A program made the translations under genes and the position numbers. DNA of 27,255 nt from a virus, in UHGV virus genome UHGV-2078504. The stretch is one strand, 5' to 3'. The notes below the pieces were generated by a model, which was given only the letters and a program-made list of their open reading frames with translations, did no database searches and was not told where the DNA came from. Shown piece after piece: positions 1-25,536 of the stretch. The first letter of the stretch is position 1, and each line of letters begins with the position of its first letter.

Positions 1-135
<135 letters not shown>

Positions 136-334
136 TTACCGTTAAATCATTTTAAAATCAGTAAGTTGTATCGAGTTTGTATGCTTTACTGTCATTAACT
201 TACTGTATGTTGATCCAGTGTATTTAACCTTGATAAACTCAGTCCAGCAACACAAAACCGCAACACATTGCATTTTGTCCCGTAGAAAAGACTTGTATGT
301 GTGAGCTTGTTTTCTGCGCCTACGCAGATAAGGA

Positions 335-1738
335 TTGAGAATGCCGCGCACTGTAACACATAATCCGGATAGCCCCAATAATGACGATGTTTTAGCCGCT
401 TCTGAAAAATGGGACGCCTGTAAACCCCCCTATACTAGCGCACACATGAAAATCTGTGTTGCTGCCGCCAAAATCATCCTCGCTGCTTCCGGCGTGGCTC
501 GCCGTTCCAAATACGAAAAAGAGAACTATCTCCGTATCGATTTCAGCAAAGCCGGTAAGGTTACATTTTACGCCGAGTTTCCAAAAAAGATGGGCCTCAA
601 AGGTAAAAAGCTCGGCGAGTGGCCGGAGCTCGCTATCCAGCTGGCGCGCGAAAAAGCACTAGGTATGGCTGACGGTGGACTGCGGGCAGAGTCCGTACAT
701 GCAGCGCTGGAAATGTACCGGGATGACCTCAAAGCCAAAGTAGCCCGTCAGAAGCTGAGCCCGGACAGTTTCACAACCTACGGGGTGCGTATCGACCGGA
801 TTAAATCAACGTTCGGCGAGCGCGAGGTGTTCAGCGACGTAACATACAGTCGGCTGGTGGAAGTGCTGGACGAGTGGATCGCCACTCGCTCGAACAATAA
901 CGCCCTGGAGTTGTTTGCCGAGCTCCGTCGGTTCTGGAAGTTCTGCGCACCTACTCTTTGCAACGGCCGCAATGTTGCCGCCAGTCTGCCAGATGATTAT
1001 GTTTCCTCCCGCGTACAGAAACCTACCCCCACACGGCTTTTTACCGATATTGAATCAATCGCCCGACTCTGGCTCAATGTTGCTGCCTGCACCTCTGTAC
1101 ACCAGAAGAATGCTGTTCGCTTCATGATCATCACTGGTGTTCGTCCGATTAATGTCCATAACCTGCGCTGGGACTACGTTCACGAGGAGGCTGGTGAAAT
1201 TGTTTATCCGGAAGGGGTTATCGGCATGCGAGGGGCTATGAAAACACAAAAGGCTTTCCGCCTGCCGATAACGCCTGAGATCCGGCGGATTATCGACGAG
1301 CAGAAAGCCTGGCGTGATTCAGTTCCTGAGTGCAACAGGGATTATGTATTTTTGCAGCCACGTGATCCAATGCAGCCATTTTCAAAACGATCACTGGATA
1401 AGCTGGTGAAAACATACAGCCCGGACGGGGCTGTAAAAGGAATAAAACATGATGGGACTGTTAAAGGGAAAGACGGTGCATTTAATACGATGTGCCGTAA
1501 ATTCCTTAAGAGCAATGTTATTGCCTTGATGAAGGAAAGAGGCTATTCCCGCTCAGACCGAAGGGAAATCAGCCTCCTTTGCCTTCACCACTCCAGCAAG
1601 TCAGATGACCCGATGGCAGAACATTACGACTTTTCTGATGAGATTTTACAGGAAGAGATTGCGTTGAAGCGCGAAGCTTTCGAGGCTCACGAGCGGAGCA
1701 TACTTGCGCAGGTGGCATTGCTACGGCGGCGAGGTTAA
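335..1738 (+). CDS. int: Phage integrase, tyrosine recombinase family
   Basis: 467-aa ORF adjacent to host gene; C-terminal region has recombinase-like motifs (ITGVRPINV..., ...CRKFL..., LCLHHSSKSDDPMAEHY with a candidate catalytic Tyr). True start uncertain; an internal Met at about 446 is an alternative. Confidence 0.75.
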   Translation: MRMPRTVTHNPDSPNNDDVLAASEKWDACKPPYTSAHMKICVAAAKIILAASGVARRSKYEKENYLRIDFSKAGKVTFYAEFPKKMGLKGKKLGEWPELAIQLAREKALGMADGGLRAESVHAALEMYRDDLKAKVARQKLSPDSFTTYGVRIDRIKSTFGEREVFSDVTYSRLVEVLDEWIATRSNNNALELFAELRRFWKFCAPTLCNGRNVAASLPDDYVSSRVQKPTPTRLFTDIESIARLWLNVAACTSVHQKNAVRFMIITGVRPINVHNLRWDYVHEEAGEIVYPEGVIGMRGAMKTQKAFRLPITPEIRRIIDEQKAWRDSVPECNRDYVFLQPRDPMQPFSKRSLDKLVKTYSPDGAVKGIKHDGTVKGKDGAFNTMCRKFLKSNVIALMKERGYSRSDRREISLLCLHHSSKSDDPMAEHYDFSDEILQEEIALKREAFEAHERSILAQVALLRRRG

Positions 1739-1935
1739 TACTGGCTGCGACATTTTTGAATAAAAGCGTCGACATTTCGGCGCTCATAACGAACTACTTT
1801 TGCACTGAAACGAATTGGTGCCAGGATAGCCCGATGACGATGCTTAATATTCCACTCACATAGCGTTTTCTGTGTAATACCTAACTTTTGGCATACTTCA
1901 TCCGGGGTGAGTAAATCGTCGGGTTTCTCGCTCAT
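1735..1935 (-). CDS. AlpA/excisionase-like small DNA-binding protein (Xis or transcriptional regulator)
   Basis: 66-aa ORF, LLTPDEVCQKLGITQKTLCEW helix-turn-helix typical of the AlpA/Xis family; sits beside the integrase and is start/stop-coupled to the upstream helicase gene. Confidence 0.7.
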   Translation of the reverse strand: MSEKPDDLLTPDEVCQKLGITQKTLCEWNIKHRHRAILAPIRFSAKVVRYERRNVDAFIQKCRSQY

Positions 1936-3326
1936 GCTATACCTCTCTTTTTCATGGCATCGAGCAGGATGTCCTGCACTGTTCGTTTTGAGTTGCGCCG
2001 CTCCATCACCATTTCGTCCATAGTGTCGGCAGCAATAATGTGGTGAATAAATACCGGACGATTGTGTCCGGCCTGTATCTGTCTGGTTGGGCCGATACGT
2101 TCAATAATTTGCTGATACTGCTCCAGGTCCCACCAATGTGAGAAAAATACCAGTATGTTTCCGCCGTCCTGCATGTTCAGACCGTGGCCCGCGCTGGCTG
2201 GGTGTGCAAAGAGAACAGGAATCTTTCCGGAATTCCAGTCACGTAGTGTCTGTGGATCCTGGTCGAGGTGACGACCGCGAGGAAATGCTTTAAGCAAGCG
2301 TTCAAGATCGTGTTTCCAGTGATAAGCAACCAGCACAGGTGCGCCAGCTGCTTCGGTCAGTATGCTGTCCAGCGCCTGTAGTTTGGTGTCATGCAGTTCT
2401 GACCAACTTCCGGTGTCATCTGTGTATACTGCGCCGCTGGCGATTTGCAGACACTTCAGTGTCTTTGCCGCGGCGTTCGGTGCTTCGATGCCTTCGCCAT
2501 TCAGCTCGAGGAACATTTCCTTTTCCATTTCACGATACTGCTGACGGGCCTTCGGCGGCATATCCACGCGGATTACGTTATGGATGGGGTCTTTGATATC
2601 GAACCAGTCGGCCGCATCCAGCGAGAGGGTCACATCGGCTAATGCTCGCTGTATTTCACCCTGTGAGTGAGCAAAAGGTTCCAGTTTAGTCCAGCTCTGT
2701 CCCGGAAACTGTATCGAGTTGAACCAGCGTGAGGTAAACGCGCCGTAAGTGCGCCCGAGACGTTGCCCTTGGTCCACAAACCACGATTGTCCCCACAAAT
2801 CTACCAGGCCGTTCGGTGCTGGCGTACCGGTGAGATTTATCCAGCGCCGGACATACTTATGCGCCACTTTGCCCAGCGCCGCCGCGCGCTTACCACCACC
2901 TCGCAGCCGGAAGGATTTTAGCCGGGTGCTTTCATCTGGAATGACAGTTCCGAACGGCCATCGTTCTCCCAATTCTTCAACCAGCCAGACAAGGTTATCG
3001 TAGTTGATGGTGAACACGCTCGCGTTGCTGTTCGCCAGCGCCGTAGAGCGCGCTTTGGCGTTACCGATGATCGGCTGTACCTCAATATTACGCAGATGCC
3101 CCCATTTAACAGCTTCATCAGGCCAGGTGCTTGCTGCAACGCGTAGCGGCGCGAGGACCAGCGCGGGGTGTGTTTCTGCTCCAGCCATGAAAAGATCTTC
3201 CAGCGTGGTGAGTGTCGCTACGGTTTTACCCATCCCCATCCCTGCCCAGATGTTGCCGCGCAGAATGTCGGTTTGGTGATTGATTATGAGGTTTTGATAA
3301 AGTCGGGGGTGGAATATGTTATTCAT
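1932..3326 (-). CDS. SNF2-family DNA helicase/ATPase
   Basis: 464-aa ORF with Walker A GMGMGKT, DEST (DExx-like) motif II, LTGTP and a C-terminal helicase region (GHGLNMQ). Confidence 0.8.
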   Translation of the reverse strand: MNNIFHPRLYQNLIINHQTDILRGNIWAGMGMGKTVATLTTLEDLFMAGAETHPALVLAPLRVAASTWPDEAVKWGHLRNIEVQPIIGNAKARSTALANSNASVFTINYDNLVWLVEELGERWPFGTVIPDESTRLKSFRLRGGGKRAAALGKVAHKYVRRWINLTGTPAPNGLVDLWGQSWFVDQGQRLGRTYGAFTSRWFNSIQFPGQSWTKLEPFAHSQGEIQRALADVTLSLDAADWFDIKDPIHNVIRVDMPPKARQQYREMEKEMFLELNGEGIEAPNAAAKTLKCLQIASGAVYTDDTGSWSELHDTKLQALDSILTEAAGAPVLVAYHWKHDLERLLKAFPRGRHLDQDPQTLRDWNSGKIPVLFAHPASAGHGLNMQDGGNILVFFSHWWDLEQYQQIIERIGPTRQIQAGHNRPVFIHHIIAADTMDEMVMERRNSKRTVQDILLDAMKKRGIA

Positions 3327-3390
3327 TAATACACCTATGGTAGAATATGTGTCAATTCTCTCTCTATATATATAACTAACGGAGGCGGGT

Positions 3391-4188
3391 ATGCCCCTGG
3401 CAAAAATACTTACAAAACAAGTTTCTTTATTAACTGTTTTTTCAGCGTTAGCTTATGCGATGGCATATTCTTTTCAGAAAGGTGTTGCATCGTATTATGG
3501 CTATCCAGCCCTTTTTATTAAAATAGATTTAAATACGCTATTGTATTCGGCTGTATGGCTTTTGTTTTTTAGTTTTTTATTTCTCGGTGCCTTATACGCG
3601 ACATTGATGTTTGATTTGAAAGGGAAATATTATGTTCCATTTATTATATTTATAGTGGTTATGCTAATACCTAATTTTTACATAATAGGATTTCATTGGC
3701 CTTTTGGTTATTTCTCCGAAACCTCTGTGATGAGTGTTGGAGATATTTTATTATTTGCTCTGCTTTTGTTGAATTACCACAATGCGGTGTCCGCGTCAAT
3801 CCATAGTAAGAGACACGAACATCATATGGATAGCATTAGAAAGTTTGGGAGGCTTGCAGAGTATAAAGACGTATTTTATTATATCGATTTAAAAATCCTA
3901 AAATCAGCTTTTCCTTTAGGGGTGATGACATTATTGATATTGAGCTATACCTTCGGGAAGGTTACTGCATTTAAAAATAACGAATATTATATGGTAGATG
4001 GTAGTAATACTAAAGTGTTGCTCAATTCATTTGGTAGTGGTTTTGTTGTTGGTGATTGTGAGTCCAATAGCGCAAAATTTGAATTTGTTAATGATTTAAA
4101 AGGGATGAAATTCACAGTTATGTCCTCTAAAAAGGAAATAGCTAAATTAAAAGAGTGTTTCGAAACACGTGTTAAAAATACGGATTAA
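3391..4188 (+). CDS. Hypothetical AT-rich membrane protein (moron; N-terminal multi-TM region plus C-terminal soluble domain)
   Basis: 265-aa ORF with GGAGG Shine-Dalgarno 5-6 nt upstream; several hydrophobic helices (VSLLTVFSALAYAMAY, LLYSAVWLLFFSFLFLGALYATLMF, VPFIIFIVVMLIPNFYIIGF, ILLFALLLLNY); strongly AT-rich compared with flanking genes; opposite strand to the surrounding operon. Confidence 0.65.
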   Translation: MPLAKILTKQVSLLTVFSALAYAMAYSFQKGVASYYGYPALFIKIDLNTLLYSAVWLLFFSFLFLGALYATLMFDLKGKYYVPFIIFIVVMLIPNFYIIGFHWPFGYFSETSVMSVGDILLFALLLLNYHNAVSASIHSKRHEHHMDSIRKFGRLAEYKDVFYYIDLKILKSAFPLGVMTLLILSYTFGKVTAFKNNEYYMVDGSNTKVLLNSFGSGFVVGDCESNSAKFEFVNDLKGMKFTVMSSKKEIAKLKECFETRVKNTD

Positions 4189-4200
4189 AGCATAAGTCTT

Positions 4201-4488
4201 TTATCTTTTATTGCGGCTTAAAATAATTTCCTCCAGATTTTTGCTATCCAGCACCACCACGGTAAAGCCCAGCTCGCGCAGCCGCTCGTGCTCGCGCAAC
4301 TGGTCGGCGCGTGGTGCTTTGCCGGGTGCTTTGCATTCAACGAAAACAAGACGGCCGCCGGGTAGCAGAACAATGCGATCCGGTACCGAGCGGCGACCGG
4401 GAGATACGAACTTAAAGGCCACACCGCCAGCCTTTTTCACTTCAGCGACGAGGTGCTTTTCGATAAGGCTCTCACGTTCATAAGACAT
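4201..4488 (-). CDS. VRR-NUC domain nuclease
   Basis: 95-aa ORF with PD-(D/E)xK-like core (PDRIVLLPGGRLVFVECKAPGK); GC-rich like the core operon; family commonly partners SNF2 helicases in phage replication modules. Confidence 0.7.
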   Translation of the reverse strand: MSYERESLIEKHLVAEVKKAGGVAFKFVSPGRRSVPDRIVLLPGGRLVFVECKAPGKAPRADQLREHERLRELGFTVVVLDSKNLEEIILSRNKR

Positions 4489-4548
4489 AAATTTGCCTTG
4501 TTAACACTTATTGGGTAGTATCAAATAAAACAAGTATAAGGAATTAAT

Positions 4549-5577
4549 ATGTCACGAATCTTATTTCCCTCTTCATGTAATCCTGAAAAGATATTTAATT
4601 TTTGCAATGAAATTGAAAAACATTCAGGTCAACAGCAAATAACAATCGATTTTTCGCATATGGGAAGGATTGAACCATTTACAATGGTTTATGTTGCTAA
4701 GCATATTCGAGACTTCCATCGAAAACAGAAAAAGAACATTGATGGTTTTAAACTTTTTTGTAGCGGGCATGAGAATAAGGATTATGCCGCAAATATGGCA
4801 TTCTTTCGAGCCTTCGGGTTAAAGCATGGCCGTGAACCGGGATGTACAGATGGAAATAATAATTTTGTTCCATTTACAATTCTTCGTGTTCAAACAGTTA
4901 TAGATGAAGCTAACGATAAATATACTGAGGTGCAAGAGATAGTTGAGGAACGATCTGGTAAATTAGCAAAGATTCTTGCTCGCCAAGAAGAAGGCGACCT
5001 CATTGATGCTTTGACATTTTCTATTAGGGAAATTATGCGTAATGTTGTGGAACATAGTGATTCAAAGGTGATTGAATATTGTGCACAGTATTGGCCTTCT
5101 TATGACCGTGTTGAAATAACAATTTCTGATAATGGTATAGGAATGAAAAAATCTCTATCGAAGAACCCTTATATAGAAGCTGATAATGATTCTGAAGCCA
5201 TTCAGTTAGCGTTAATGCCATCTATTTCTAGTAAAAATTTTAAGGGGGCGAGAATCAATACAAGAAATCCTTGGCATAATTCGGGATTTGGCCTTTATAT
5301 GATCAGCCGTATATGTAAACTTGGCGGTAGTTTTCTTATTTGTAGCGGTGACCATGCAATATATCTAGATGAACACGGAAAGAAGCATATAGAGTTAGGT
5401 CATTATCATGAAGGAACTGTCGTTAGAATGGTGTTGAATACTAAAAAACTTGGTTCCTTAAGCTCAATGCTTACGCAGTTTAAGGAGGATGGCTACAAAA
5501 TAGCTGCAGAAATAAAACATACTGGAGTTTATACAGCATCAGCTGCTTCGCAGATGTTATCTAGGGATTTTAAGTGA
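4549..5577 (+). CDS. Hypothetical protein with C-terminal GHKL/histidine-kinase-like ATPase domain (moron)
   Basis: 342-aa AT-rich ORF; C-terminal half carries N-box-like REIMRNVVEHS, G1 box ISDNGIGM and G2 box NSGFGLYMISRI characteristic of HATPase_c (histidine kinase/anti-sigma-factor kinase/GHKL) folds; N-terminal ~110 aa of unknown function. Confidence 0.7.
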   Translation: MSRILFPSSCNPEKIFNFCNEIEKHSGQQQITIDFSHMGRIEPFTMVYVAKHIRDFHRKQKKNIDGFKLFCSGHENKDYAANMAFFRAFGLKHGREPGCTDGNNNFVPFTILRVQTVIDEANDKYTEVQEIVEERSGKLAKILARQEEGDLIDALTFSIREIMRNVVEHSDSKVIEYCAQYWPSYDRVEITISDNGIGMKKSLSKNPYIEADNDSEAIQLALMPSISSKNFKGARINTRNPWHNSGFGLYMISRICKLGGSFLICSGDHAIYLDEHGKKHIELGHYHEGTVVRMVLNTKKLGSLSSMLTQFKEDGYKIAAEIKHTGVYTASAASQMLSRDFK

Positions 5578-5584
5578 CTTTGTA

Positions 5585-7648
5585 TTACTCCTTACGGTAG
5601 TGGTACGCCTCAAAGCCGCCAGCATTCAGCGGAATATCGGGTGCCCATTCGGGGTTAGTGGAGAGAAGCGCGGAAAGCGCTTTATCGTTGAAATCTTCTG
5701 TGTCAGGTGCTTCGGTGATCACCTCGTCGTGTACCGTCAGCACAATGCTGTAACCGGCATCTTCGATAAGCGGCATGTTTCCGGCCAGAATGTCGCGGGC
5801 GGCCGCCTGGGTGATGTTCTCCACCAGCTTTCCGCCGTAGGTTTTGAGTCGTTGCCATTTACGCGAATAAGAGTTAACCCCCATGTAGGTGATATTCCCT
5901 TTTTCGATAACCGGAGACGGGTAGCATACAGCGCGTCCGGATGGTAGCTGTATGCGCAGCCACGCGCCATCGCGGCGGATTTTAAGATAACCGCAATACA
6001 ATGTTTTTTGCGGTGTGGCGATTGCAGTGCGGACGGTGCGCTCCAGTTCGTACCAGAAATCACAGGTCGCGGGATGCGCCCGGCGCCAGAGACGTTTAAG
6101 TGAGTCGCAGGCGATAAATACCCGTTCAGAAAGCCCGTAGGTTGACTTGCGTTTAACCGATTCGTCGTACCAGCTTTTCGCCTCGCGGATAACATCGCGG
6201 GGAATGTTTGGTAGTGCGGCGTTCGCCAGCTCGTCGAGATCGAGACCGTAAACCAGTGCAAAAGTGATGAAGGCCGACACACCACCACCATAACCCAGAC
6301 CGAGTTCCATGACTTTACCGATCTGACGCATGTGTTTATCAACATCATCTGGTGCAATATCGAAAGCTTTTGCATACGCCAGTTTATATAAGTCCGGACC
6401 CGTTCCGGCGTCGTACTCTCTGAATGCATTCAGTTTCCATTCTTCTCCCGCCAGCCATGCCAGCATACGGCCTTCAATGTTCGACAAGTCACTTACCACC
6501 AGCTTTTTGCCTGTTGGCGCGATAATGCAGCCACGTAACGCTGAACTGGTTAGTTCCATGATATTGTCAAACAGCAGGTCTGCACATCCGGCTTTCAGTG
6601 CTTCGATGCCTTCGTCTATTTGTTCCTGTTTTAGTGAAGGGCGGGGAAGGTTCTGGGGCTGGAATAGCCGTCCGGCCCAACGACCGGTACGTGACGCCCC
6701 GCAGAACTGTAGCGTACCGCGTAAGCGCCCGTCGTGGCTTACGCCTTTCATCAGTGCCTTGTATTTACTGGTGCTGGTAGTACTGGCCTGCAGGCGGATA
6801 GCCAGCAGTTCTTTCACGGCAGATGGTAAATCGGGGTCGGCAATACGACGTTCCAGAGTACTGCGTTGCATGTCTGGTAGCTCCACACCGTAGGATTCAA
6901 CAATGTGCTTAATCAACGCGTCTCGTTGTGTGGCTGCCTGCACTTCGCCATCAGTCATTTCCTGTGTACGCTTTGCCAGGCGCTTTTGTTCCTGGTCTAC
7001 CACGTCGATCGCAGCGCGTGCGAGTTCCACGTCCATGCAGACGCCCCGGTCATTGATCTGCTGATCACGATGCCAGAGCGCCAGTTCTGTCCCCTGATAA
7101 TTCCACTTCGGCAGACGTTTATAGACTTCGCGCATTGCCTCGATATCCAGTCCGGCGTAAGCAACAAAGCGCCGCCATTCTTCCGGGTGGGTTTTGCTGG
7201 TGGCCCGGCGCAGTTTGCTGTTTTTCGGGCGTGGCTTACAGAACAGCTGGATCAGCGCTTTACCTTCTTTGTCCTTCGCTTTGTCTTGCGGGACGCCTAG
7301 TACTTCGCAGAGTTCCCCCAGAGACCCCGGGAGACCGTGCGCCAGCGCCTGCACCATTGTGTCGCGCCAACGTTCGACTGGCGGTGCTAGGCGCGGCATT
7401 GCATAACGCAGGACGGTGCGGTCGAAGTGAGAGTTATGAAAATAAAGTAGGGTTTCAGGGGCTGCGATTGCTTCGTATAAGCCGTGTGGAATACCACCAC
7501 CGGCAGTGATATCCCACACGTTTACTGGTCCGTCGTTGATAGCCCATGCGAAAAGCATCACTTCAACGCCTTCGGCATACGCATGGGTACCGTTCGTAAT
7601 AGGGATTTCGCAATAGGTTTCCAGGTCGCCCCATAGTATATTGGACAT
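5585..7648 (-). CDS. Family A DNA polymerase with N-terminal 3'-5' exonuclease domain
   Basis: 687-aa ORF; Exo I-like WGDLETYCE; polymerase motif [12 protein letters not shown], motif [13 protein letters not shown], motif C LTVHDEV. Confidence 0.85.
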
Positions 7649-7694
7649 GTGTTTACCTTGGTTTTTATTCTATTAACTGATTAAAAGATTAATT

Positions 7695-8324
7695 ATGCAT
7701 ATGATCCAATACTTGATTGACCATACAGAGCATCTGGAGAAAATAGCTGGATATATTTTTTCATGTTTGATTGTTATGGGAGTCTGGATAAGAAAGATCA
7801 TTTTTAATTATAAGTATAAAGAGCCTAAATATGTCAAGAAGTTAATTTTATATTTAATTAAGTATGAACGTTATCTGGATAAGGAGGATAAGAAAGCCAT
7901 AGAAAAAAGAATAAATGATAAAATTATTCGTGATGCGCTGAAATTGCAATCCTCTTATAACCGAAGTGATGTTATTTACATTTGCAATAGATTAGAAAAA
8001 AGACAGTATATAAATCAGTTGATTAAGCTTCAGAATTATATAGAGAAAGATAACGGAGTGTTTTTTATTAATGTTGATTTTTCAGGTTTTTTATTTATTG
8101 TTAGTCGTCTGTTTTCCTTTCTGTGTTTTGTGCTGTTTACCCTTTTTTCTATTATCTGCATTATTTCCATAGGGCAAAATGAAGGCCTTTTAAATTATCT
8201 TGTGTATATGGTTATGATAATAGTTTTAGAGACTGTTGGTTTTTGGATGTATGATACTTTCCCGTCTAAGAAAAAGATCTGTGAACTAAATAAAGAATTG
8301 AGAAAGATTAAGATTCCTGAGTGA
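7695..8324 (+). CDS. Hypothetical AT-rich membrane protein (moron)
   Basis: 209-aa, very AT-rich ORF on the opposite strand to the operon; N-terminal TM helix (IAGYIFSCLIVMGVWI), lysine-rich soluble segment, then two or three C-terminal TM helices (FLFIVSRLFSFLCFVLFTLFSIICIISIG, LVYMVMIIVLETVGFWMY). Start could be 7695 or 7701. Confidence 0.6.
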   Translation: MHMIQYLIDHTEHLEKIAGYIFSCLIVMGVWIRKIIFNYKYKEPKYVKKLILYLIKYERYLDKEDKKAIEKRINDKIIRDALKLQSSYNRSDVIYICNRLEKRQYINQLIKLQNYIEKDNGVFFINVDFSGFLFIVSRLFSFLCFVLFTLFSIICIISIGQNEGLLNYLVYMVMIIVLETVGFWMYDTFPSKKKICELNKELRKIKIPE

Positions 8325-8342
8325 TTATACGCCTAATCAGTA

Positions 8343-8361
8343 GCCCGGTGTTTAACCGGGC
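8343..8361. terminator. Stem-loop between convergent genes (possible bidirectional terminator)
   Basis: GCCCGGT-gttta-ACCGGGC perfect 7-bp inverted repeat between the end of the 7695-8324 gene and the end of the 8377-8925 gene; no clear U-tract on either strand. Confidence 0.3.
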
Positions 8362-8376
8362 GTCTATGAAGTAGGG

Positions 8377-8925
8377 TTAAATTAGTGCTTCAGCATCAGC
8401 ACCTTCGCTGATATCGTCGAAATCGTCAGCGCTTGCCACTCCGCCGCCAGCGAATGCATCGCCGTCTCGCAGGAACTGGACTCCGCCGAGTGAGGCATTA
8501 ATGCGTTTACCGAAATTATTGTCCTGTGCCCAGATATCGATAACGGCGTTTACATAGCACCCTGCATAGGGACGTCCGTCAGCCTGAATAAGTGGCGAAC
8601 GATCGCGATCAAGAACAGCTGGGCGCGCTTTGTTAGCAGCATTCAGGAAGAAATTACCGGGGAAGCCTTCATACTCTGCTTTTTCATCACCATCATGCAG
8701 GCACAGATTGAGTTTTTTCTCCAGCTGGTTATAAATGGGCTCCCACTTCTCTCCCCATTTTTCCTTCGCTACCTGCTTCATAGCTTTACGGATTTCTTCC
8801 AGTTGTGGGTGTTTGGGTGACATTAAAAATACTGCGGAGAAACGTGGATCGCCTTCGCCGTTTACAGTTTTAGCTTCAAACAGAGACGGGAAGGCCAGAC
8901 GAACATTGTTCAGCTTCAGTTTCAT
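8377..8925 (-). CDS. DUF2815-like phage protein, putative ssDNA-binding protein
   Basis: 182-aa ORF in replication module beginning MKLKLNNVRLAFPSLFE; acidic C-terminal tail ...DDFDDISEGADAEALI resembling SSB/gp2.5-type interaction tails. Family assignment is from memory. Confidence 0.55.
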   Translation of the reverse strand: MKLKLNNVRLAFPSLFEAKTVNGEGDPRFSAVFLMSPKHPQLEEIRKAMKQVAKEKWGEKWEPIYNQLEKKLNLCLHDGDEKAEYEGFPGNFFLNAANKARPAVLDRDRSPLIQADGRPYAGCYVNAVIDIWAQDNNFGKRINASLGGVQFLRDGDAFAGGGVASADDFDDISEGADAEALI

Positions 8926-8940
8926 GGGTATTTCCTTAAA

Positions 8941-10242
8941 TCAGATGAGGTCTGCGGTTAGCGTATCGTCGGATACGTCGTCGAAATCATTTACAGGGTT
9001 GATATTGAGTGCGGGGCGTGGGTCTGACTCGGGAACGACGGTGGGTTTACCATCAGCTCGTGTTATCAGTGCCTCGACTTTTGACCAACGGCGCGGACTG
9101 GCCTTTTTGATAAGTTTTTCGGCTTTTGTGGGACTAATAAGTTTAAAGTCGAATACTTCTTCAGTTTTGTACCTGAACTGGTCCTTCAGAAGTGCGCGAG
9201 CTGCCTCTTCATCACTCCAGGCCCGGTTACCTTGTTTTCCTGTTACCAGTTTAAACCCCGGTACCGGATGTCCGGCATTGAGTTCATTGTGAACCCGGTC
9301 CCGTACTGCCTTTAGCCAGGATTCAATAAAGTCGGCCTGGCTATAGATCTCCGCAAGCTGCTCAATGGTTAACAGAGGTACACGTGCGCTGGCATTGGTG
9401 ATTATTTCGCTGACAGGCTTTGTCAGATCTTCAAAGTCGCTGGCCGCTGTTTGTAAATGCTGCATTTTCTGGGCAGTGCAAATAGCTTTTGCTTTACAGA
9501 AGCGGCACTGTTTTTCTCCAGGTATGAAGTTTTCCAGCGGTAGTGTCTCAATGCCTTCGCATTCAGCAATATTGAGAACAAGGATCGCACTGGTTGCGGC
9601 CTCCTGTGCCCGTTCACCGAAAGACTGAAGTTCCTGTACGGTTAATGACCATTCTGAAACGTGGTTGAGCCTTGGCTGGTGAATAAATAATCTTACAGTC
9701 TCAAAGTCATACAGCATGCTGAATTGTTCGAGCGCACCCAGAGCATACAGTTGTAGTTGCTCATTTTGTTCTGCATCAATGCGGACGCCTTTGCCATATT
9801 TCAGGTCGTGGATTTGTAATTCGTTACCAGCGATGATTATGCCGTCGGCAGTTCCGAAAGATTCTTCCACCCCCGTTATATGTGAGAAATCAACACGTTG
9901 TTCAACCAATAGTTCATTATTCTGTGCAAGAGTCCAGACCGTATCAACATACCGGCCAACGGCTTCGACCATTTCATCATCCACCTGTGGGCCAGATGTA
10001 TTATCAGGATTTTCGCGAAGGGGGTATGAGCCGAGAAACATAGAAACATTGCATCCGGCGTAGTGTTCCGGGTGGCTTTGCCTGTTTCGTAGAACTTTTT
10101 CAGCAAGCGCGTGCGCTGCAGTGCCCTCGATTGCAAAAGTTGTTTCTTTATCCGGTTGTGTGGCCTCCAGCGCCAGACTTCCTGGGCAGCGCATCCATCG
10201 ATGCGCTGATGATGGAGAAAGTTGTGCATGAACGTCTGGCAT
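8941..10242 (-). CDS. DUF2800-like PD-(D/E)xK nuclease with Cas4-like cysteine cluster
   Basis: 433-aa ORF; N-terminal [15 protein letters not shown], nuclease-like core (IHDLKYGKG), C-terminal cysteines [10 protein letters not shown]; acidic C-terminal tail ...[15 protein letters not shown]. Confidence 0.65.
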
Positions 10243-10244
10243 GA

Positions 10245-11147
10245 TTAACCCTCCAGTGCTTTTTCAGCCAGGGTGATTACTTCAGCGAGATTTTCATCCG
10301 TTACTTCACCAAGTTTCCTGGCTCCCTGTTTTTCCAGAATTGCAATAGCTTCTGCCCGGTAACCCCCTTTTGCTAACTGGAGGATCAACCCTTCAGCTTG
10401 TTTGCGTAGTGCCGCGAAATCAATTGTATGGTCATCTTTGGCGTCATTATTCTGGCTGGAATTTGCTGCGTCTCTACGTGCAAATTCTTCCTGCAGCTGA
10501 AGGTACTCAACACGGTTGATCTCGATATGGCCTTTTTTAAGCATCTCGTTCAACTTGCGTAAGGTATGGAGTTCACTGGCTGCTGTGCCGGATACATTTT
10601 TGACGTAAAACGGCCCCGTGCGTTCTCCATCTTTGTTACTGGCCTTTTTCGGCTTAACTTCATCACGCCCATCTGCAGGTGCATCAAGTAGCTGCTCGGC
10701 AAAAGCACGTCGCTCGCCGATGGTTGGCAGGTCGTCCCAGAACTTAAGAATGTTACGGGACAGGTCCAGGAGAGCAGGTTTAAGCAGCGCCCTGGCTCGT
10801 TTGACGCCCTGTAATGCGCTGTCGAGAGCATCAATCTGAACTACTCGTTTATCGCCTTCAGCATCACGGTAGGCAACAGCACGTTGCAGCATGTCTTCTG
10901 TGATAGGGGTGGCTACCGGGTAGAAAACAGCCAGTGCGATAACGTCGCTGAACTCCAGATCATCCAGTGTCATTGCCGCTGACATGTTTTCAGCTTCAGT
11001 TGCTGTATCCCGACATTCCTGCACTCGTGAAATCGTGTCAGGATGCATAACAATACCTGATGCCATTGTGCGGATAAGACGTTCAAGCAGCGCATTATGT
11101 TGTGCTAGAAGTTGATTATTAAGTTCGAGACTGGTTTCTAAACTCAT
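10245..11147 (-). CDS. Hypothetical phage protein (early-left operon)
   Basis: 300-aa ORF tightly packed (2-nt gap) with the downstream nuclease gene; mainly helical/charged composition; no motif recognised. Confidence 0.55.
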
Positions 11148-11326
11148 ACTGTGGTCCTCGCTACAAGGAGAATGAAAGTGATGATCAGACCGAGCGCAGT
11201 GGCAACGGCCAGACCGGTCATCAAATCGAAGTTTTTACGGCGATAACGGAGAACATCGCGCCCCGTCAGTCGATGGATGTGTTCAGGTTTCATCGGTTGT
11301 ATTCCTTTTTTCATATCGGGGAGCAC
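11144..11326 (-). CDS. Small hypothetical protein with C-terminal transmembrane helix
   Basis: 60-aa ORF, 4-nt overlap (ATGA) with next gene; C-terminal hydrophobic segment LAVATALGLIITFILLVA. Short, so coding status uncertain. Confidence 0.4.
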   Translation of the reverse strand: MLPDMKKGIQPMKPEHIHRLTGRDVLRYRRKNFDLMTGLAVATALGLIITFILLVARTTV

Positions 11327-11351
11327 GCTGTTGCGAGTGCGCTTTCAGACA

Positions 11352-11378
11352 TAAAAAAGCCCGTCACTTGAGGCGGGC
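11352..11378 (-). terminator. Putative intrinsic terminator (minus strand) upstream of early-left operon
   Basis: Plus-strand AAAAAA followed by GCCCGTC-acttga-GGCGGGC hairpin; on the minus strand this reads as a stem-loop followed by a U-tract. Confidence 0.35.
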
Positions 11379-11517
11379 AAAGACTACACACAGCAATTAC
11401 ATGGATATCATCGAGTGCCTGCTTTTAACCACATCAGGCGAGGTAGTTCTCCTTGTACCCCTACAGTGAGAAATCGTCTAATATCTCTTCACCCCTACAG
11501 TTTGAGAGAGATTAGAT

Positions 11518-12087
11518 ATGTCTGAAGAAAAAGGAATTCTTTCCCGGATAACTGAATCGTTATCCGGCGTGGGAGGAGCAATTAAAAGCGCGGTTGGAGC
11601 AGCAAGAGAGATTCAGAATCTGACTGTCGACTATGCAGTTAAAGAGAAGACGCACATCTTACTCGATAAGCTAATGGATGTTCAGATGCAGCAAATGTCG
11701 CTTCAGGAGCTGCTGATTGCGGCTAAGGAGAAAATTGTTGAACTGGAAAATGAGAAAGTAAAGCAAGAGAACTGGGCCGCTGAAGCGGCGAGCTATGAAC
11801 TTTACCAGCCTATGCGGGGTACTCTGGTCTATCGCAGCAAGCTTTCTGCAGATGCTGACCAATCTCCGGTTTATATTTGTCCCAATTGCTACGAGCAAAA
11901 GAGAAAATCTATATTGCAAGCGGAAGGTCTGGTTACTAAGCCAGGCCTTGGGCGAGCCGTTAATATGGTTTGTTCGTACTGTAGGGCTTCCTATCTGTTC
12001 AACCGAAATGCTTTAGAGGCCCGACTGCCTTCTGAAGATGAAAATCCGGGGAAGGCAATCACGGATTACGATCCTTACAACCAGTAA
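11518..12087 (+). CDS. Hypothetical coiled-coil/zinc-ribbon protein (immunity-region moron)
   Basis: 189-aa ORF on opposite strand to repressor and early-left genes; central coiled-coil segment (QELLIAAKEKIVELENEKVKQEN) and CPNC...CSYC four-cysteine zinc-ribbon-like motif. Confidence 0.6.
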   Translation: MSEEKGILSRITESLSGVGGAIKSAVGAAREIQNLTVDYAVKEKTHILLDKLMDVQMQQMSLQELLIAAKEKIVELENEKVKQENWAAEAASYELYQPMRGTLVYRSKLSADADQSPVYICPNCYEQKRKSILQAEGLVTKPGLGRAVNMVCSYCRASYLFNRNALEARLPSEDENPGKAITDYDPYNQ

Positions 12088-12138
12088 TTTCTTTAAGCAT
12101 GGGTACCCTTCCGGCCACCCAGAGTTAAAGGAACTAAG

Positions 12139-12159
12139 CGCCCCATCGTCGGGGCGTTT
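12139..12159 (+). terminator. Possible terminator hairpin downstream of 11518-12087 gene
   Basis: CGCCCC-atcgtc-GGGGCG hairpin followed by TTT; short U-tract so weak. Confidence 0.3.
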
Positions 12160-12403
12160 CAACTTGCGTGACTTATCAGTTTGTCGCGGTGTTGTCCTCT
12201 ACGCTTACCGTACGCATACGGACTCGGCGCTTACCTCGATCCCATCGGGTGCTATTTCGTTTTGCCAGGAGTACTGCGGCTTACCTGTCACGCGGTTCAG
12301 TTTGTTAAAGAGCCAGTATTAAAAAACGCATTAATTATGCGATATCGTATTTATATGCGTTATGGGATTTTGTGTCAATACGAAAATGAATTATTTTGCA
12401 AAT

Positions 12404-12432
12404 AAGAAAACCGCCCTTGTGGAGAGCGGTTT
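12404..12432 (-). terminator. Putative intrinsic terminator of repressor gene (minus strand)
   Basis: AAACCGC-ccttgtggaga-GCGGTTT inverted repeat about 30 nt downstream of the cI stop; the minus-strand reading is followed by a T-rich run (TTTTCTTATTT). Confidence 0.45.
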
Positions 12433-12462
12433 GATCAGAAGTAAGTTATCAGACTGTAAAGG

Positions 12463-13137
12463 TTAGTACATACGTAGCGCGGATTTGGCGATCCCCGCCA
12501 CGTAATGGATTTTTTCAATGTTTTCGCGTGGTACTCTGACTGGTGGATGATCTTCATTTACAGACATTAGATGGAACAGGCCATCGCGTTCGAACAAGAA
12601 GGTTTTAACCATGACCTCACCTTCCCGGGTAACCACAAGTACTTCATCACCAGGAGTGTAGTCGTGGTTGGGTTCGACGATTACGAACTCCCCCTCTTTG
12701 ATTCTAGGCATCATTGAATCACCAACACATTTCAGGGCGTATGCATCTTCATCCTTTGTCGGCCAGTATATGAAACCATCACTGCTACCTACTGAATATT
12801 GGGTGTCGCTCCAAAGTCCTCCAACGCCTAGCTGAGTGTTTCCCAAAACAGGTACTTTATTAAACCTAAGAGAAATATACGTTTTTATACCTGTCGCGTC
12901 CTCTTTCTCCATTTCTTGAAGGCTCCTTTCTGCCAAGTCTATTGGTGACACGTGGAAGTAGTCGGCGATCTGCTTTAACGTTGCGTATTTCGGATCTTTC
13001 ACCTCTCCTGATACCAGCCTGTGTAGCGTTGGTTGGTTCAGCTGTAACCGACGTGCCAGCTCAGTTATCGAGCTTATCTTGGCTTTGTCCATCAGGTACT
13101 TGATGTTTTGAGAAAGGATATCGGTAGTATCAATCAT
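12463..13137 (-). CDS. cI: CI-like prophage repressor (N-terminal HTH, C-terminal S24 LexA-like autopeptidase)
   Basis: 224-aa ORF; N-terminal HTH (ITELARRLQLNQPTLHRLVSG); C-terminal S24 signature with catalytic Ser (CVGDSMMP) and Lys (EVMVKT); divergent from a Cro-like gene. Confidence 0.85.
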   Translation of the reverse strand: MIDTTDILSQNIKYLMDKAKISSITELARRLQLNQPTLHRLVSGEVKDPKYATLKQIADYFHVSPIDLAERSLQEMEKEDATGIKTYISLRFNKVPVLGNTQLGVGGLWSDTQYSVGSSDGFIYWPTKDEDAYALKCVGDSMMPRIKEGEFVIVEPNHDYTPGDEVLVVTREGEVMVKTFLFERDGLFHLMSVNEDHPPVRVPRENIEKIHYVAGIAKSALRMY

Positions 13138-13278
13138 TTGGATTCATCCATGTTGTATACAGGGACGGTGATTATGCGTTATCGGATATTTTAATCTAGG
13201 ATGACATAGAATTGCTGTATTGCTGAGTAATCCGTTTTCGTATAAATTTGCGCTATAGACGAAAGTGGAGACTTAAAT
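13138..13278. promoter_or_regulatory. Divergent PRM/PR-type promoter-operator region of the lysis-lysogeny switch
   Basis: 141-bp AT-rich intergenic region between divergent cI-like and cro-like genes; contains palindrome TGTATACA (13154-13161) and tandem TTGCTG repeats (13212-13225). Promoter/operator positions not resolved. Confidence 0.5.
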
Positions 13279-13479
13279 ATGTCCGGACTAACACCACAAG
13301 AGATGGTCAAAAGCTTGATTGATTCAGGGTATACCCAAAACCAAATTGCCGAAATTGCAGGCGTGAAGCAGTCTTCTATTAGTCGGCTTCTTACCGGGGT
13401 TCATTCTGACCCTCGCTTTTCTACAGTACGTGCGATAGAAAAACTTTTTCAGGAAGTGACAGCTAGACAAAAGGTGTAA
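13279..13479 (+). CDS. cro: Cro-like HTH transcriptional regulator
   Basis: 66-aa ORF with HTH (YTQNQIAEIAGVKQSSISRLLTG), divergent from the repressor, immediately upstream of the primase. Confidence 0.7.
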   Translation: MSGLTPQEMVKSLIDSGYTQNQIAEIAGVKQSSISRLLTGVHSDPRFSTVRAIEKLFQEVTARQKV

Positions 13480-13482
13480 CCC

Positions 13483-15669
13483 ATGTCCGATAGCAAACCA
13501 TGGGGAGCTACGCCTGATGAGTGGTTTCATTTCGACCTGGTATTGGGGCGGACTGCTCATCTTCTCCCAGTTGTATGTAACCCCAGTGCGACCATATCCC
13601 CTGATAGTAAATTGAAAGCGTTGGGTAAGACGCCGAGTCGCTATAACCGGGACCGCCAGGTCACCGGTATTGCTCAATGGACCGGGCATGTTGTTACTGA
13701 GCATGATTTTGCCCACTGGTCGAATGAACCGGATTATGGCATCTGCGTGCGTACAGGCCATGGCTGGCTGGCGCTGGACTGCGATAGCGAAGATGAAGAC
13801 ATTCAGGCAGATATTCGCAAAACACTTGTGCAACTTCTGGGTGAGTCGCCGCCGCGACGCTGGCGAGCAAACAGTAATAAGTGTCTGTATCTGCTGGCCG
13901 TTGATGGTGATTTCCGTAAGCGTATCCATCGCCTAGCGGGGGATATGGGCATTATCGAGTTGCTGGCGAACGGGCAGCAGTTCGTTGCCTGTGGTACGCA
14001 CAGCAGCGGCGCGCGTATTGAATGGGACGGTGGTTTGCCGGATGAACCTCCGGCTATTACAGGTGAGCAGCTTGAAACGCTGTGGCAGCGCCTGGCTGAA
14101 CAACTCCCTGTGTCGGTAACCACCGAAGCGGGCAACACGAAGATGCGCGACCGTTCAGCATTCACGCCCGGCGCGACGGATGATACAGCTGAATATCTTG
14201 ATGCCAATGGCTGGACGCTGCTGGATGGCGCAAACGGTGAACGATATATCCGCTGTCCGTTTGAAGACGGCCACAGTAGCGGAGGCGATCCAACAAGCAC
14301 AGTTTATTTTCCTGCGGGAACCGCAGGCTTTGAGCAGGGGCATTTTAAATGCCTGCATGCCAGTTGCGCGCATCGTGATGACGGAGATTTCCTGAATGCC
14401 ATCGGGATCCGCAACGACGATTTCGAAGATCTGACCAGCATCGAAGTGGCGGAACCTTTACCGCTGCCTGCTTTCGAGCGTGATAAATGGGGGCGTATCG
14501 AGGCAACCATCAGCAATGCAGCCAAAGCAGTAGTACGCTCTGATTTTGTGGACATCGATATTCGCTTTGACCAGTTCCGCGACGAAATCATGTTTGCCCC
14601 GGCAGGATCCGGACAATGGCGGGCATTCACCGATGCGGATTATGCGCGCCTGCGCATCACGATGGAAAAGCGGGGATTTAAACCTGTTGGCCGTGAACTT
14701 ATTCGCGATGTGGTGTTACTTGCAGCCGATGAACAACCATTCGATTCAGCGATCACCTGGCTGAACGGGCTGGAGTGGGATGGCGTGCCGCGCATCGAAT
14801 GTTTCTACCATACGCACTTCGGTACCGCCGACACGCCTTATACCCGTGCGGTGTCTATGTACATGTGGACCGCGTTGGCGGGGCGAGTACTGGAGCCAGG
14901 CATCAAAGCGGATATGGTGCCGATCCTCGTTGGTCCGCAGGGCTGCGGTAAGTCTTCCGGAGTGGAGGCACTGAGCCCTGATCCTGCGTTTTTTACTGAA
15001 ATCTCTTTTGCCGAAAAAGACGATGATCTCGCTCGAAAAATGCGTGGTCGGCTGGTGGCAGAGATTGGTGAACTGCGCGGACTTAATACCAAAGAGCTGG
15101 AGTCAATCAAAGCGTTTGTGACGCGTACTCACGAAAACTGGATCCCGAAATACCGGGAGTTCGCCACCCAGTTTCCTCGTCGCCTGGTGTTCGTTGGTAC
15201 CACTAATGAGGACGAATTCCTTGCGGACAAGACTGGTAACCGTCGCTGGCTCCCCGTGGAAGTGTCGAAAGTCGACGTGAAAGCGATAAAAAGAGATCTT
15301 CTTTTACTTTGGGCTGAGGCTCGTGAGGTGTTTCAGCGTCTGGGGGGTATCCAGTTCCGTGAGGCTGAACAACTGGCAGCGAGTGTCCATGAACAGTACA
15401 CCATCAAGGATGCTTGGCTTGAAACGGTAGAGAAATGGCTCGACACGCCCGACCTGATGACTAATGAACTTCCGCGAAATTGCGAATTTTTACGCGCAAG
15501 TGATGTTTTGCGTGATGCGATTGGGCTAAATCCTGACCGCATCGGAAAACGCGAAGAAATGCGAATTAGTAATGTTTTGCAAAATTGCGGGTATAAGCGT
15601 GCCCAAAGGCGAATTGGGGGGAAAAAATGCAAGGTTTGGGAACCGCTGGAACCACGCGGAACCACCTAG
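13483..15669 (+). CDS. Replication primase: N-terminal PrimPol-like domain fused to C-terminal P-loop (VirE/D5-like) ATPase
   Basis: 728-aa ORF; N-terminal acidic catalytic region (WLALDCDSEDED), central cysteine/histidine cluster (CPFEDGHSSG...HFKCLHASCAH), C-terminal Walker A GPQGCGKSS; followed by iterons. Confidence 0.75.
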   Translation: MSDSKPWGATPDEWFHFDLVLGRTAHLLPVVCNPSATISPDSKLKALGKTPSRYNRDRQVTGIAQWTGHVVTEHDFAHWSNEPDYGICVRTGHGWLALDCDSEDEDIQADIRKTLVQLLGESPPRRWRANSNKCLYLLAVDGDFRKRIHRLAGDMGIIELLANGQQFVACGTHSSGARIEWDGGLPDEPPAITGEQLETLWQRLAEQLPVSVTTEAGNTKMRDRSAFTPGATDDTAEYLDANGWTLLDGANGERYIRCPFEDGHSSGGDPTSTVYFPAGTAGFEQGHFKCLHASCAHRDDGDFLNAIGIRNDDFEDLTSIEVAEPLPLPAFERDKWGRIEATISNAAKAVVRSDFVDIDIRFDQFRDEIMFAPAGSGQWRAFTDADYARLRITMEKRGFKPVGRELIRDVVLLAADEQPFDSAITWLNGLEWDGVPRIECFYHTHFGTADTPYTRAVSMYMWTALAGRVLEPGIKADMVPILVGPQGCGKSSGVEALSPDPAFFTEISFAEKDDDLARKMRGRLVAEIGELRGLNTKELESIKAFVTRTHENWIPKYREFATQFPRRLVFVGTTNEDEFLADKTGNRRWLPVEVSKVDVKAIKRDLLLLWAEAREVFQRLGGIQFREAEQLAASVHEQYTIKDAWLETVEKWLDTPDLMTNELPRNCEFLRASDVLRDAIGLNPDRIGKREEMRISNVLQNCGYKRAQRRIGGKKCKVWEPLEPRGTT

Positions 15670-25521: not shown

Positions 25522-25536
25522 NNNNNNNNNNNNNNN
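25522..25536. other. Assembly gap (15 N)
   Basis: Run of 15 n characters; true length unknown. Confidence 0.95.

Follow-up and report, generated by a model that had tools for sequence, protein, structure and literature searches.

Morons, as classically defined for the lambdoid phages by Hendrix and colleagues, are genes that have a promoter and a terminator of their own and are expressed from the prophage. A working definition of phage morons has been published (PMC9928086), and the paper on a moron of LF82 concerns another phage. Accessory genes are also found in the defence hotspots of P2-like prophages and P4-like satellites (Rousset et al., 2022; PMC9122126), whose modular swapping is the subject of a follow-up study (PMC13586616). 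In this work, we describe three genes, here named A, B and C, that lie on the plus strand at positions 3391–4188, 4549–5577 and 7695–8324 of the UHGV virus genome UHGV-2078504 (27,255 nucleotides, one strand, 5′ to 3′; this whole stretch is referred to below as the window), each of them placed between minus-strand genes of one replication operon. Our analyses indicate that these three permissive junctions are independent cargo slots, and that A, B and C are probably separate single-gene defence candidates which would protect the lysogen. The arrangement adds one more case to the prophage hotspots or morons with defence genes and contains nothing categorically new, the P2/P4 hotspots being its closest parallel. 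The searchable literature holds no description of the slots of this phage family, and nothing relevant was found in the literature on vB_EcoM-606R2, on DUF2800/DUF2815 prophage hotspots or on the accession of gene B.

Like the P2/P4 hotspots, the three junctions occupy fixed positions between conserved phage genes, hold diverse and rapidly swapped cargo within near-identical backbones, combine known defence systems with many genes of unknown function, and have their cargo replaced rather than deleted. They differ from these hotspots in belonging to another phage family, which integrates at yfhL and carries a PolA/DUF2800/DUF2815/VRR-NUC/SNF2 module and a VapE-type primase, in forming three small slots with mostly single genes in one replication operon instead of one or two large hotspots, and in the clear split of their cargo by orientation and composition. 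The defence activity of P2/P4 cargo has been tested experimentally, whereas that of the cargo described here is predicted from sequence. With morons they have in common extra genes placed between core genes and missing from close relatives, whose composition is unusually AT-rich and whose transcription in the lysogen is presumed to be autonomous. Unlike classic morons, they display only promoter-like −10 elements, with no terminators found in the convergent gaps, and they also accept same-strand genes of matching guanine-plus-cytosine (GC) content that resemble accessories of the lytic cycle.

The window, a temperate phage that has integrated in Escherichia coli next to yfhL and shoB, matches the chromosome of E. 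coli PS1Thumoskin9 at 100% identity. The core genes of its leftward replication operon are, in order, those for a DUF2800/PD-(D/E)XK nuclease (8941–10242; Pfam 3.4e-110), a DUF2815/Enc34-type single-stranded DNA (ssDNA)-binding protein (8377–8925; Pfam 7.6e-44), a family-A DNA polymerase, PolA (5585–7648; Pfam DNA_pol_A 3.5e-14), a VRR-NUC nuclease (4201–4488; RefSeq annotation of the identical record) and an SNF2-family helicase (1932–3326; Pfam SNF2-rel_dom 1.9e-11), all on the minus strand. Slot A (3327–4200) reaches from the SNF2 start codon, at its left flank, to the VRR-NUC stop codon; slot B (4489–5584), separated from it by the 288 bp of the VRR-NUC gene, from the VRR-NUC start codon to the polymerase stop codon; and slot C (7649–8376) from the polymerase start codon to the stop codon of DUF2815, which together with DUF2800 forms its right flank. 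Of 5426 complete E. coli genomes, 162 (~3%) contain the 9.3-kb module, in every case on the chromosome, and relatives of the phage also occur in Klebsiella- and Serratia-type hosts. For comparison, 80 further loci were taken from viral contigs (IMG/VR) with the polymerase as anchor (87–99% amino acid (aa) identity to that of the window); the five core genes were located in each of 87 loci, and the length, GC content and open reading frame (ORF) content of their slots were measured.

The order DUF2800, DUF2815, slot C, PolA, slot B, VRR-NUC, slot A, SNF2 is invariant in all loci with adequate flanks, the SNF2 helicase being retained in nearly all of the 87 loci at 83–100% aa identity and VRR-NUC being 83–97% conserved. 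Within this fixed frame, 23 cargo configurations were recorded for slot A, 12 for slot B and 13 for slot C (counted on ORFs of at least 100 aa), and the 76 loci that have all three slots display 60 distinct combinations of them. Empty states exist as well: slot A measures only 0–174 bp in 11 loci (L047 and L049 among them) and slot C 88–90 bp in ~19 loci, while the minimal slot B, of ~218 bp, contains small same-strand ORFs (ANR, DUF4406). An alignment against relatives, proposed in the earlier note on this DNA for mapping insertion boundaries, placed the breakpoints at the ends of the core genes, homology to relatives with different cargo ending within a few bases of the flanking start or stop codons (~3299–3325 and ~4230 for slot A, 4488 and 5569 for slot B, and 7640–7649 and 8377, or 8343 in some relatives, for slot C). 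These positions imply that whole intergenic cassettes are exchanged, presumably by homologous recombination in the conserved flanks. Site-specific insertion was considered and set aside in favour of recombination in the flanks, since no flanking repeats were seen and the breakpoints coincide with core-gene ends. Independent acquisition of three genes at hotspots was one of two explanations offered in the earlier note; hotspots and free reassortment are borne out by the empty states and by the many cargos in near-identical backbones, but for A and C independent acquisition gives too plain a picture: both come from divergent protein families confined to one slot each, which speaks for prolonged residence and the replacement of alleles more than for capture at random.

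The composition of the three genes sets them apart from the remainder of the window. The earlier note had described them as AT-rich plus-strand genes that each fill one junction between minus-strand replication genes, and the ORF map agrees with this in full, with exact coordinates for products of 265 (A), 342 (B) and 209 aa (C) and GC contents of 0.326, 0.361 and 0.289, respectively, against a mean of 0.511 (standard deviation 0.037, minimum 0.433) in the other 25 genes of the window. The corresponding z-scores are −5, −4 and −6; GC at third codon positions is 0.301, 0.268 and 0.319 (z-scores −2.7 to −3.3), and, measured against the codon usage of the phage itself, codon adaptation lies ~2 standard deviations low. 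The sliding-window and codon-usage analyses that had been suggested thus reveal a non-uniform composition, GC falling to 0.25–0.38 over each gene and standing at 0.50–0.57 between them. The core replication genes lie on the minus strand, as had been stated, but they are not GC-rich in absolute terms, their values of 0.49–0.54 being close to the E. coli average, and the contrast is therefore due to the AT-rich inserts. Nor are the genes universal in the phage family: among the module-bearing E. coli genomes, C is found in 67 of 159, A in 17 of 162 and B in 8 of 162, the last figure referring to copies inside this prophage out of 11 genomes that have gene B at all.

Representatives of the cargo families were scanned against Pfam and PADLOC. 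The cargo of slot A includes BstA, PDC-S42, DUF6338, Dcm, Rha and HNH proteins, and annotated relatives hold in this slot either BstA with a cytosine methylase or three plus-strand genes of unknown function. Of the larger cargos in slot B, a same-strand CAP12/Pycsar-type TIR protein (PDC-S35 at 7e-109) is the most frequent, and annotated relatives have either the TIR protein with small ORFs or DUF4406 and ANR only. Slot C accepts, among others, SIR2/PDC-S25 (4e-158), Nmad5, BRO-N, SPFH and DUF4145 proteins, annotated relatives having Nmad5 or a combination of BRO-N and an HNH endonuclease. Known or candidate defence genes (viz. BstA, PDC-S42, PDC-S35 (TIR) and PDC-S25 (SIR2)) accordingly share the slots with A, B and C. 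BstA is a prophage-encoded abortive-infection protein (Owen et al., 2021; PMC8585504), and in related phages it occupies slot A of 10 loci in the same antisense orientation as gene A, as a single-gene prophage defence; A, B and C have no sequence similarity to it, and BstA is soluble and binds DNA, in contrast to the membrane proteins A and C.

The composition of these cargos is predicted by their strand. Antisense cargo comprises BstA (1.4e-115), PDC-S42 (6e-40) with a membrane partner, DUF6338, DUF4145 and the families of A, B and C, while same-strand cargo comprises cytosine and other methyltransferases, PAPS-reductase-like enzymes, Nmad5, Rha, BRO-N, SPFH, HNH homing endonucleases, TIR/PDC-S35 and SIR2/PDC-S25. 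The mean GC content is 0.37 for the antisense families (n = 22) and 0.48 for the same-strand families (n = 25), and values below 0.42 are seen in 20 of the 22 antisense families versus 4 of the 25 same-strand families (Fisher p = 2e-7). Same-strand cargo is mostly of core-like GC content, and DNA-modification enzymes, homing endonucleases and Rha/BRO-type proteins make up the larger part of it. This split across cargo families makes the pattern first seen in the window a general property of this phage group. The suggestion in the earlier note that antisense placement could couple the expression of the genes to the lysogenic state would be in keeping with the split.

Some further contents of the slots were also observed. 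HNH_3 homing endonucleases (1e-18 and 6e-10) are present in slots A/B of two loci (L076 and L084) and in slot C of VL7S7 (H132), which indicates that selfish elements, too, find a place in the junctions besides genes for defence or modification. PAPS-reductase-like proteins (1e-8 to 1e-10) occur on the operon strand in slots A/B of L057 and L070, alongside Nmad5 and methyltransferases, and hint at phage DNA-modification functions in the slots. In Serratia quinivorans (L088, 11226–12292), slot C holds a same-strand SPFH/Band_7 gene, whose family (K41) is also present in two viral loci, together with a 66-aa ORF; the same locus carries gene B in slot B.

We propose that antisense cargo is transcribed in the lysogen from a promoter of its own, independently of the repressed replication operon, and that it would protect the lysogen, and hence the prophage, from other phages, whereas same-strand cargo would be co-transcribed with the replication operon during lytic growth. 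The product of gene A would then be a protein of the inner membrane, its C-terminal domain with the two cysteines may lie on the periplasmic side, and its likeliest role is in blocking entry or in exclusion; that of gene B, a relative of VapK, would unite a sensor and an ATP-dependent kinase or switch in one protein, which probably responds to a cue of infection and works on a target from another locus; and gene C would encode a membrane protein with a cytoplasmic helical domain that may act as an abortive-infection or exclusion factor. The slot junctions themselves look like natural boundaries between transcription units. In empty versions of slot C (L047, L049, L060, L064 and L078), there is a conserved hairpin, CACCCGGC...GCCGGGTG, just past the stop codon of DUF2815, with TTTTG after it on the operon strand; this element looks like a terminator or attenuator within the replication operon. 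In the window, a GC-rich hairpin read from the sequence at the right edge of slot C by the same stop codon (GCCCGG, 7 nt, CCGGGC; 8343–8361) stands in the same place but has lost the T-run; it is a backbone element, as homology with two relatives (L010 and L055) resumes at 8343–8344.

Several observations weigh against this interpretation. The scan of the three genes with PADLOC v2.0.0 gave no match for A and C and, for B, only a local 29-bit match to one DrmA model. A promoter consensus scan returned promoter-like sites in no greater number than in shuffled sequence, although −10-like elements can be read upstream of A, B and C. No terminator is predicted in the convergent gene-end gaps of 12, 7 and 52 bp, so that transcripts from either side would run antisense into the neighbouring gene; such run-through would be compatible with the idea, put forward in the earlier note, of a collision with leftward early transcription. 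Both TIR/PDC-S35 and SIR2/PDC-S25, which are clear defence-type cargos, lie on the operon strand, and orientation is consequently no strict marker of function. About 10% of 124 neighbouring ORFs in 21 contexts of gene B match defence models (ZorE, DrmC, AbiU, DolB, pAgo/SIR2, NucC and PD-T4-7 among them), a figure that stands without a background rate, and many of the neighbours of B elsewhere are housekeeping genes. The alleles of gene C differ by 6 nonsynonymous and 2 synonymous changes, too few to demonstrate purifying selection. Lastly, the IMG/VR loci are partly redundant, and counts of loci are not counts of independent events.

The 265-aa product of gene A (3391–4188, plus strand) is a multi-pass membrane protein with 4–5 predicted transmembrane helices and a soluble C-terminal domain of ~60 aa that has two invariant cysteines. 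It had no match in the copies of Pfam, NCBIfam or PADLOC that were used, and its single, weak PHROG match is to phrog_35408, a family of unknown function (E = 0.008). The recent Pfam family PF27470, which lies outside the Pfam copy used, is precomputed for relatives of gene A (P0125–P0130). The relatives form only 7 clusters of 57–100% identity, all of them from Enterobacteriaceae, and gene A is furthermore homologous to four antisense cargos (K23, K36, K59 and K92; phmmer 1e-6 to 1e-14), which are AT-rich, multi-pass and restricted to slot A. Across this divergent family only G221, C223, F230 and C256 are invariant, and between alleles of gene A the ratio of nonsynonymous to synonymous substitution rates (dN/dS) is 0.28. 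The two invariant cysteines suggest that the C-terminal domain is a putative disulfide-bonded periplasmic domain, which in turn points to a function in entry or exclusion. Upstream of the gene, a possible extended −10 promoter element, TGgTAGAAT, can be read on the plus strand at 3338–3346, followed by a GGAGG ribosome-binding site; the element was not reported by the two-hexamer consensus scan.

Gene C (7695–8324, plus strand) encodes a near-orphan membrane protein of 209 aa, in which an N-terminal transmembrane helix is followed by a highly charged helical domain and a C-terminal transmembrane hairpin. Scans against Pfam, NCBIfam and PADLOC gave nothing useful, and the protein matches phrog_10579, also of unknown function, at 1e-106. 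Its clusters consist of one 90% cluster and fragments only, and an exhaustive HMMER search of 1.84 billion representatives recovered ten relatives of ~210 aa that are 25–43% identical to it and share its architecture, with L54, N199 and L202 invariant; two further slot-C cargos (K86 and K12) are linked to the family. The allele WP_000551021.1, which is found in the relatives L003 and L004, is listed as a "Predicted novel defense gene" in Table S10 of DefensePredictor with a mean log-odds of 6.1, the stringent cutoff of its authors being 4 (PMC13092281).

The products of genes A and C may be compared, by way of analogy, with membrane superinfection-exclusion proteins of temperate phages, e.g., P22 SieA, T4 Imm and HK97 gp15. 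Like these proteins, A and C are small, prophage-encoded and predicted to reside in the inner membrane, and they are AT-rich, highly divergent and specific to a phage lineage. Neither has detectable homology to SieA, Imm or gp15, and the likeness is one of size, membrane topology and genomic setting only.

Gene B (4549–5577, plus strand) differs from the other two in being a member of a large and widespread family. Its 342-aa product combines a STAS-like domain with a GHKL (SpoIIAB/RsbW-like) ATPase/kinase domain and an invariant C-terminal tail, and is solitary. A total of 552 homologs are detectable, the best 120 of which are 63–99% identical over their full length (63–76% outside its own cluster), and copies at 50–70% identity are found in Bacteroidota, Chlorobiales, Campylobacterota and Thermodesulfobacteriota. 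In every context examined gene B is more AT-rich than its flanks, and its dN/dS is 0.045. This wide distribution, the composition relative to the flanks and the low dN/dS are together explained by horizontal spread under strong constraint. Against sequences of solved structures, nothing better than E = 1 was obtained for gene B, and the BFVD viral fold library returned generic GHKL matches only.

The closest described relatives of gene B are two kinases of bacterial immune systems. CapK (HTH-STAS-GHKL) is activated by ssDNA and phosphorylates the STAS-wHTH repressor CapS, and VapK (STAS-GHKL) phosphorylates the antitoxin VapS and thereby releases the VapC nuclease, in an operon that protects against a T5-like phage; the ssDNA that activates both kinases is produced by DNA damage, and in 443 of 443 cases capK is directly followed by capS (Chambers et al., EMBO J 2026; PMC13373217). 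Residues 1–286 of VapK and the sequence of CapK were taken from the supplementary files of that study. The profile of the gene B family aligns with VapK over 227 columns that span both domains (hhalign probability 93.7%, E = 1.9e-7), and BLASTP yields 22% identity with an E value of 2e-7. Homology to CapK was considered as well and is too weak to claim (50% probability over 48 columns, from the N-box to G1 only).

Gene B and VapK are alike in their collinear arrangement of a STAS domain followed by a GHKL kinase domain with intact ATP-binding motifs, and both are found on mobile or defence-associated DNA. Unlike VapK and CapK, gene B has no adjacent STAS-domain substrate (VapS or CapS), its neighbours in the window being VRR-NUC and PolA, and it has no VapC toxin, no downstream immune operon and no conserved neighbour in 21 contexts. 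It is also without the HTH domain of CapK, and it possesses an extra C-terminal segment of ~45 aa that ends in an invariant serine-rich tail (YxASAASQMLSRDF). In the hhalign register, its invariant R40 aligns with F54 of VapK, the aromatic ssDNA-stacking residue that corresponds to W68 of CapK. Judged from its sequence, gene B is thus placed in the same broad group as VapK, but it fails the features that define the VapK and CapK systems.

The genomic settings of gene B are diverse. In Serratia it occupies the same prophage slot, in Shewanella a Zorya and restriction-modification island, in Stutzerimonas the cargo end of an integrative element, and in Spongiibacter the atpC–glmU interval. E. 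coli ET490 (L005, 7740–9029) has an 86%-identical copy in a tRNA-Thr island next to dptFGH (Dnd/Dpt), accompanied by a frameshifted pseudogene fragment of VRR-NUC, and it seems that a slot-B piece of this prophage was captured there by another mobile island. Such a copy is also seen in Kluyvera (L097), and in TUM14664 (L006) the copy found in ET490 lies beside IS1 inside a different prophage. A stand-alone sensor kinase with an anti-phage role is a plausible description of gene B and constitutes the least secure part of our account.

A broader proposal can be offered only tentatively. Gene B may represent a new cross-phylum family of single-gene immune sensors of VapK/CapK stock which, with no need of a dedicated substrate or toxin gene, would recognise a cue of infection and act directly on a host or phage target or on their own invariant serine-rich tail at the C-terminus; A and C would be further membrane exclusion or abortive-infection factors. 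In that case new defence genes could be drawn from three slots within one compact phage family, and genes expressed in the lysogen could be predicted from the orientation of the cargo. Prophage hotspots are among the most productive sources of new anti-phage systems, and the small size, sharp boundaries and mostly single-gene contents of the three slots make their cargo easy to clone and test. Orientation and AT-richness separate cargo that is likely to be expressed in the lysogen from lytic accessories (viz. methylases, PAPS-reductase-like proteins, Nmad5 and homing endonucleases), and so simple a rule might serve for other phage families as well. Of all items, gene B is of greatest interest, as a highly conserved, horizontally spread and solitary relative of the recently described CapK and VapK, for which the manner in which a kinase without a partner yields an output is a directly testable question.

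Other explanations for the presence of A, B and C have to be weighed against that of separate defence cargo. The genes could serve the life cycle of the phage itself, B as a kinase that senses DNA damage or ssDNA and tunes induction or replication, and A and C in lysis timing, replication anchoring or the control of lysogeny. The activation of the relatives CapK and VapK by ssDNA, the position of B inside a replication module and the occurrence of the regulators Rha and BRO-N among other slot cargo are in keeping with such roles, but A, B and C are missing from most close relatives that keep the same core genes, empty slots exist, and B is found at 59–70% identity in chromosomal non-phage contexts across several phyla; we consider this explanation rather unlikely, an accessory regulatory role in one particular phage being conceivable. 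Alternatively, A, B and C could be genes of lysogenic conversion whose benefit to the host (envelope, stress physiology or colonisation) has nothing to do with phages. Morons of E. coli prophages frequently have functions of this kind (PMC9928086), and A and C, as membrane proteins without recognisable domains, would suit them. The recognisable cargo of the same slots is, however, of defence, DNA-modification or selfish type and not of virulence or metabolic type, C is predicted to be defensive and B is associated with defence islands, for which reasons lysogenic conversion is also an unlikely explanation.

The possibility, raised as the second explanation in the earlier note, that the three genes are scattered parts of one accessory system, here taken as a three-component system active only when complete, is rejected on the co-occurrence data, which had been proposed as a check and which indicate that the slots vary independently. 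Among the complete E. coli genomes, 7 of the 8 prophages with B also carry A, where ~0.8 would be expected by chance (17 × 8/162), and all three genes are present in five genomes, which are at least 98.6% identical to the window over the 9.3-kb query (three of them at least 99.8%). The genomes with both A and B are, however, near-identical members of one lineage, and with no more than 288 bp between slots A and B the association is accounted for by linkage. Gene A occurs without B in 10 genomes, nine of which have a 94% allele of A together with TIR, the tenth being strain 48; in E. coli IAI1 (NC_011741) the 94% allele is accompanied by the TIR gene and by C. Gene B is combined with other slot-A cargo in strain A4 (a different gene), L046 (BstA) and L053 (another gene), and stands alone in 21 unrelated contexts with neither A nor C nor any recurrent neighbour. 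In MINF_2E, A and B are accompanied by Nmad5 in slot C, and most of the 67 genomes with C lack both A and B. A single three-part system is hence most improbable, and separate single-gene cargo remains the preferred reading. It is equally hard to credit that the genes have no selected function, whether as neutral or decaying passengers of permissive intergenic sites or as chance ORFs of AT-rich spacer DNA, since the selfish HNH endonucleases in the slots, the 6 nonsynonymous against 2 synonymous differences in C and the few relatives of A and C are outweighed by the 552 homologs and dN/dS of 0.045 of B, by the dN/dS of 0.28 of A, whose divergent homologs retain the topology and both invariant cysteines, and by the relatives of C, which retain length, topology and motifs at only 25–43% identity.

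The remaining features of the window surround the replication operon. An integrase gene (335–1738) lies on the plus strand, and a small HTH gene stands beside the SNF2 helicase in the minus-strand block, which ends, from left to right after DUF2800, with a gene for a 300-aa protein (h300). Beyond this block there follow a repressor and Cro-like pair and then the rightward genes for a VapE-type primase, lysis, terminase, portal and capsid. A fourth plus-strand gene (11518–12087), situated between the replication operon and the repressor, encodes a 189-aa protein with no family match that has two CxxC pairs, which suggest a zinc ribbon; it is variable, being present in 14 of 88 loci, its neighbours (h300 and a 60-aa ORF) being found in 72–74 of 88. 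An Rfam scan of positions 1–14000 of the window detected no RNA family. A run of 15 N is located at 25522–25536, just downstream of the major capsid gene, and produces X residues in the ORF translations that cross it. In E. coli XH993 (NZ_CP019361), the module is otherwise 99.8% identical to the query but ~777 bp longer, and DUF2800 is annotated as two proteins, which suggests that this gene carries an insertion sequence or a similar insertion. Lastly, at least two repressor types are found at one position, viz. a 224-aa HTH/S24-like protein in the window (12463–13137) and a 207-aa LexA-family protein in two relatives (L002/L004, 12685–13417), and the Cro-like partners differ between relatives along with the repressor type, indicating that the immunity region is exchanged too.

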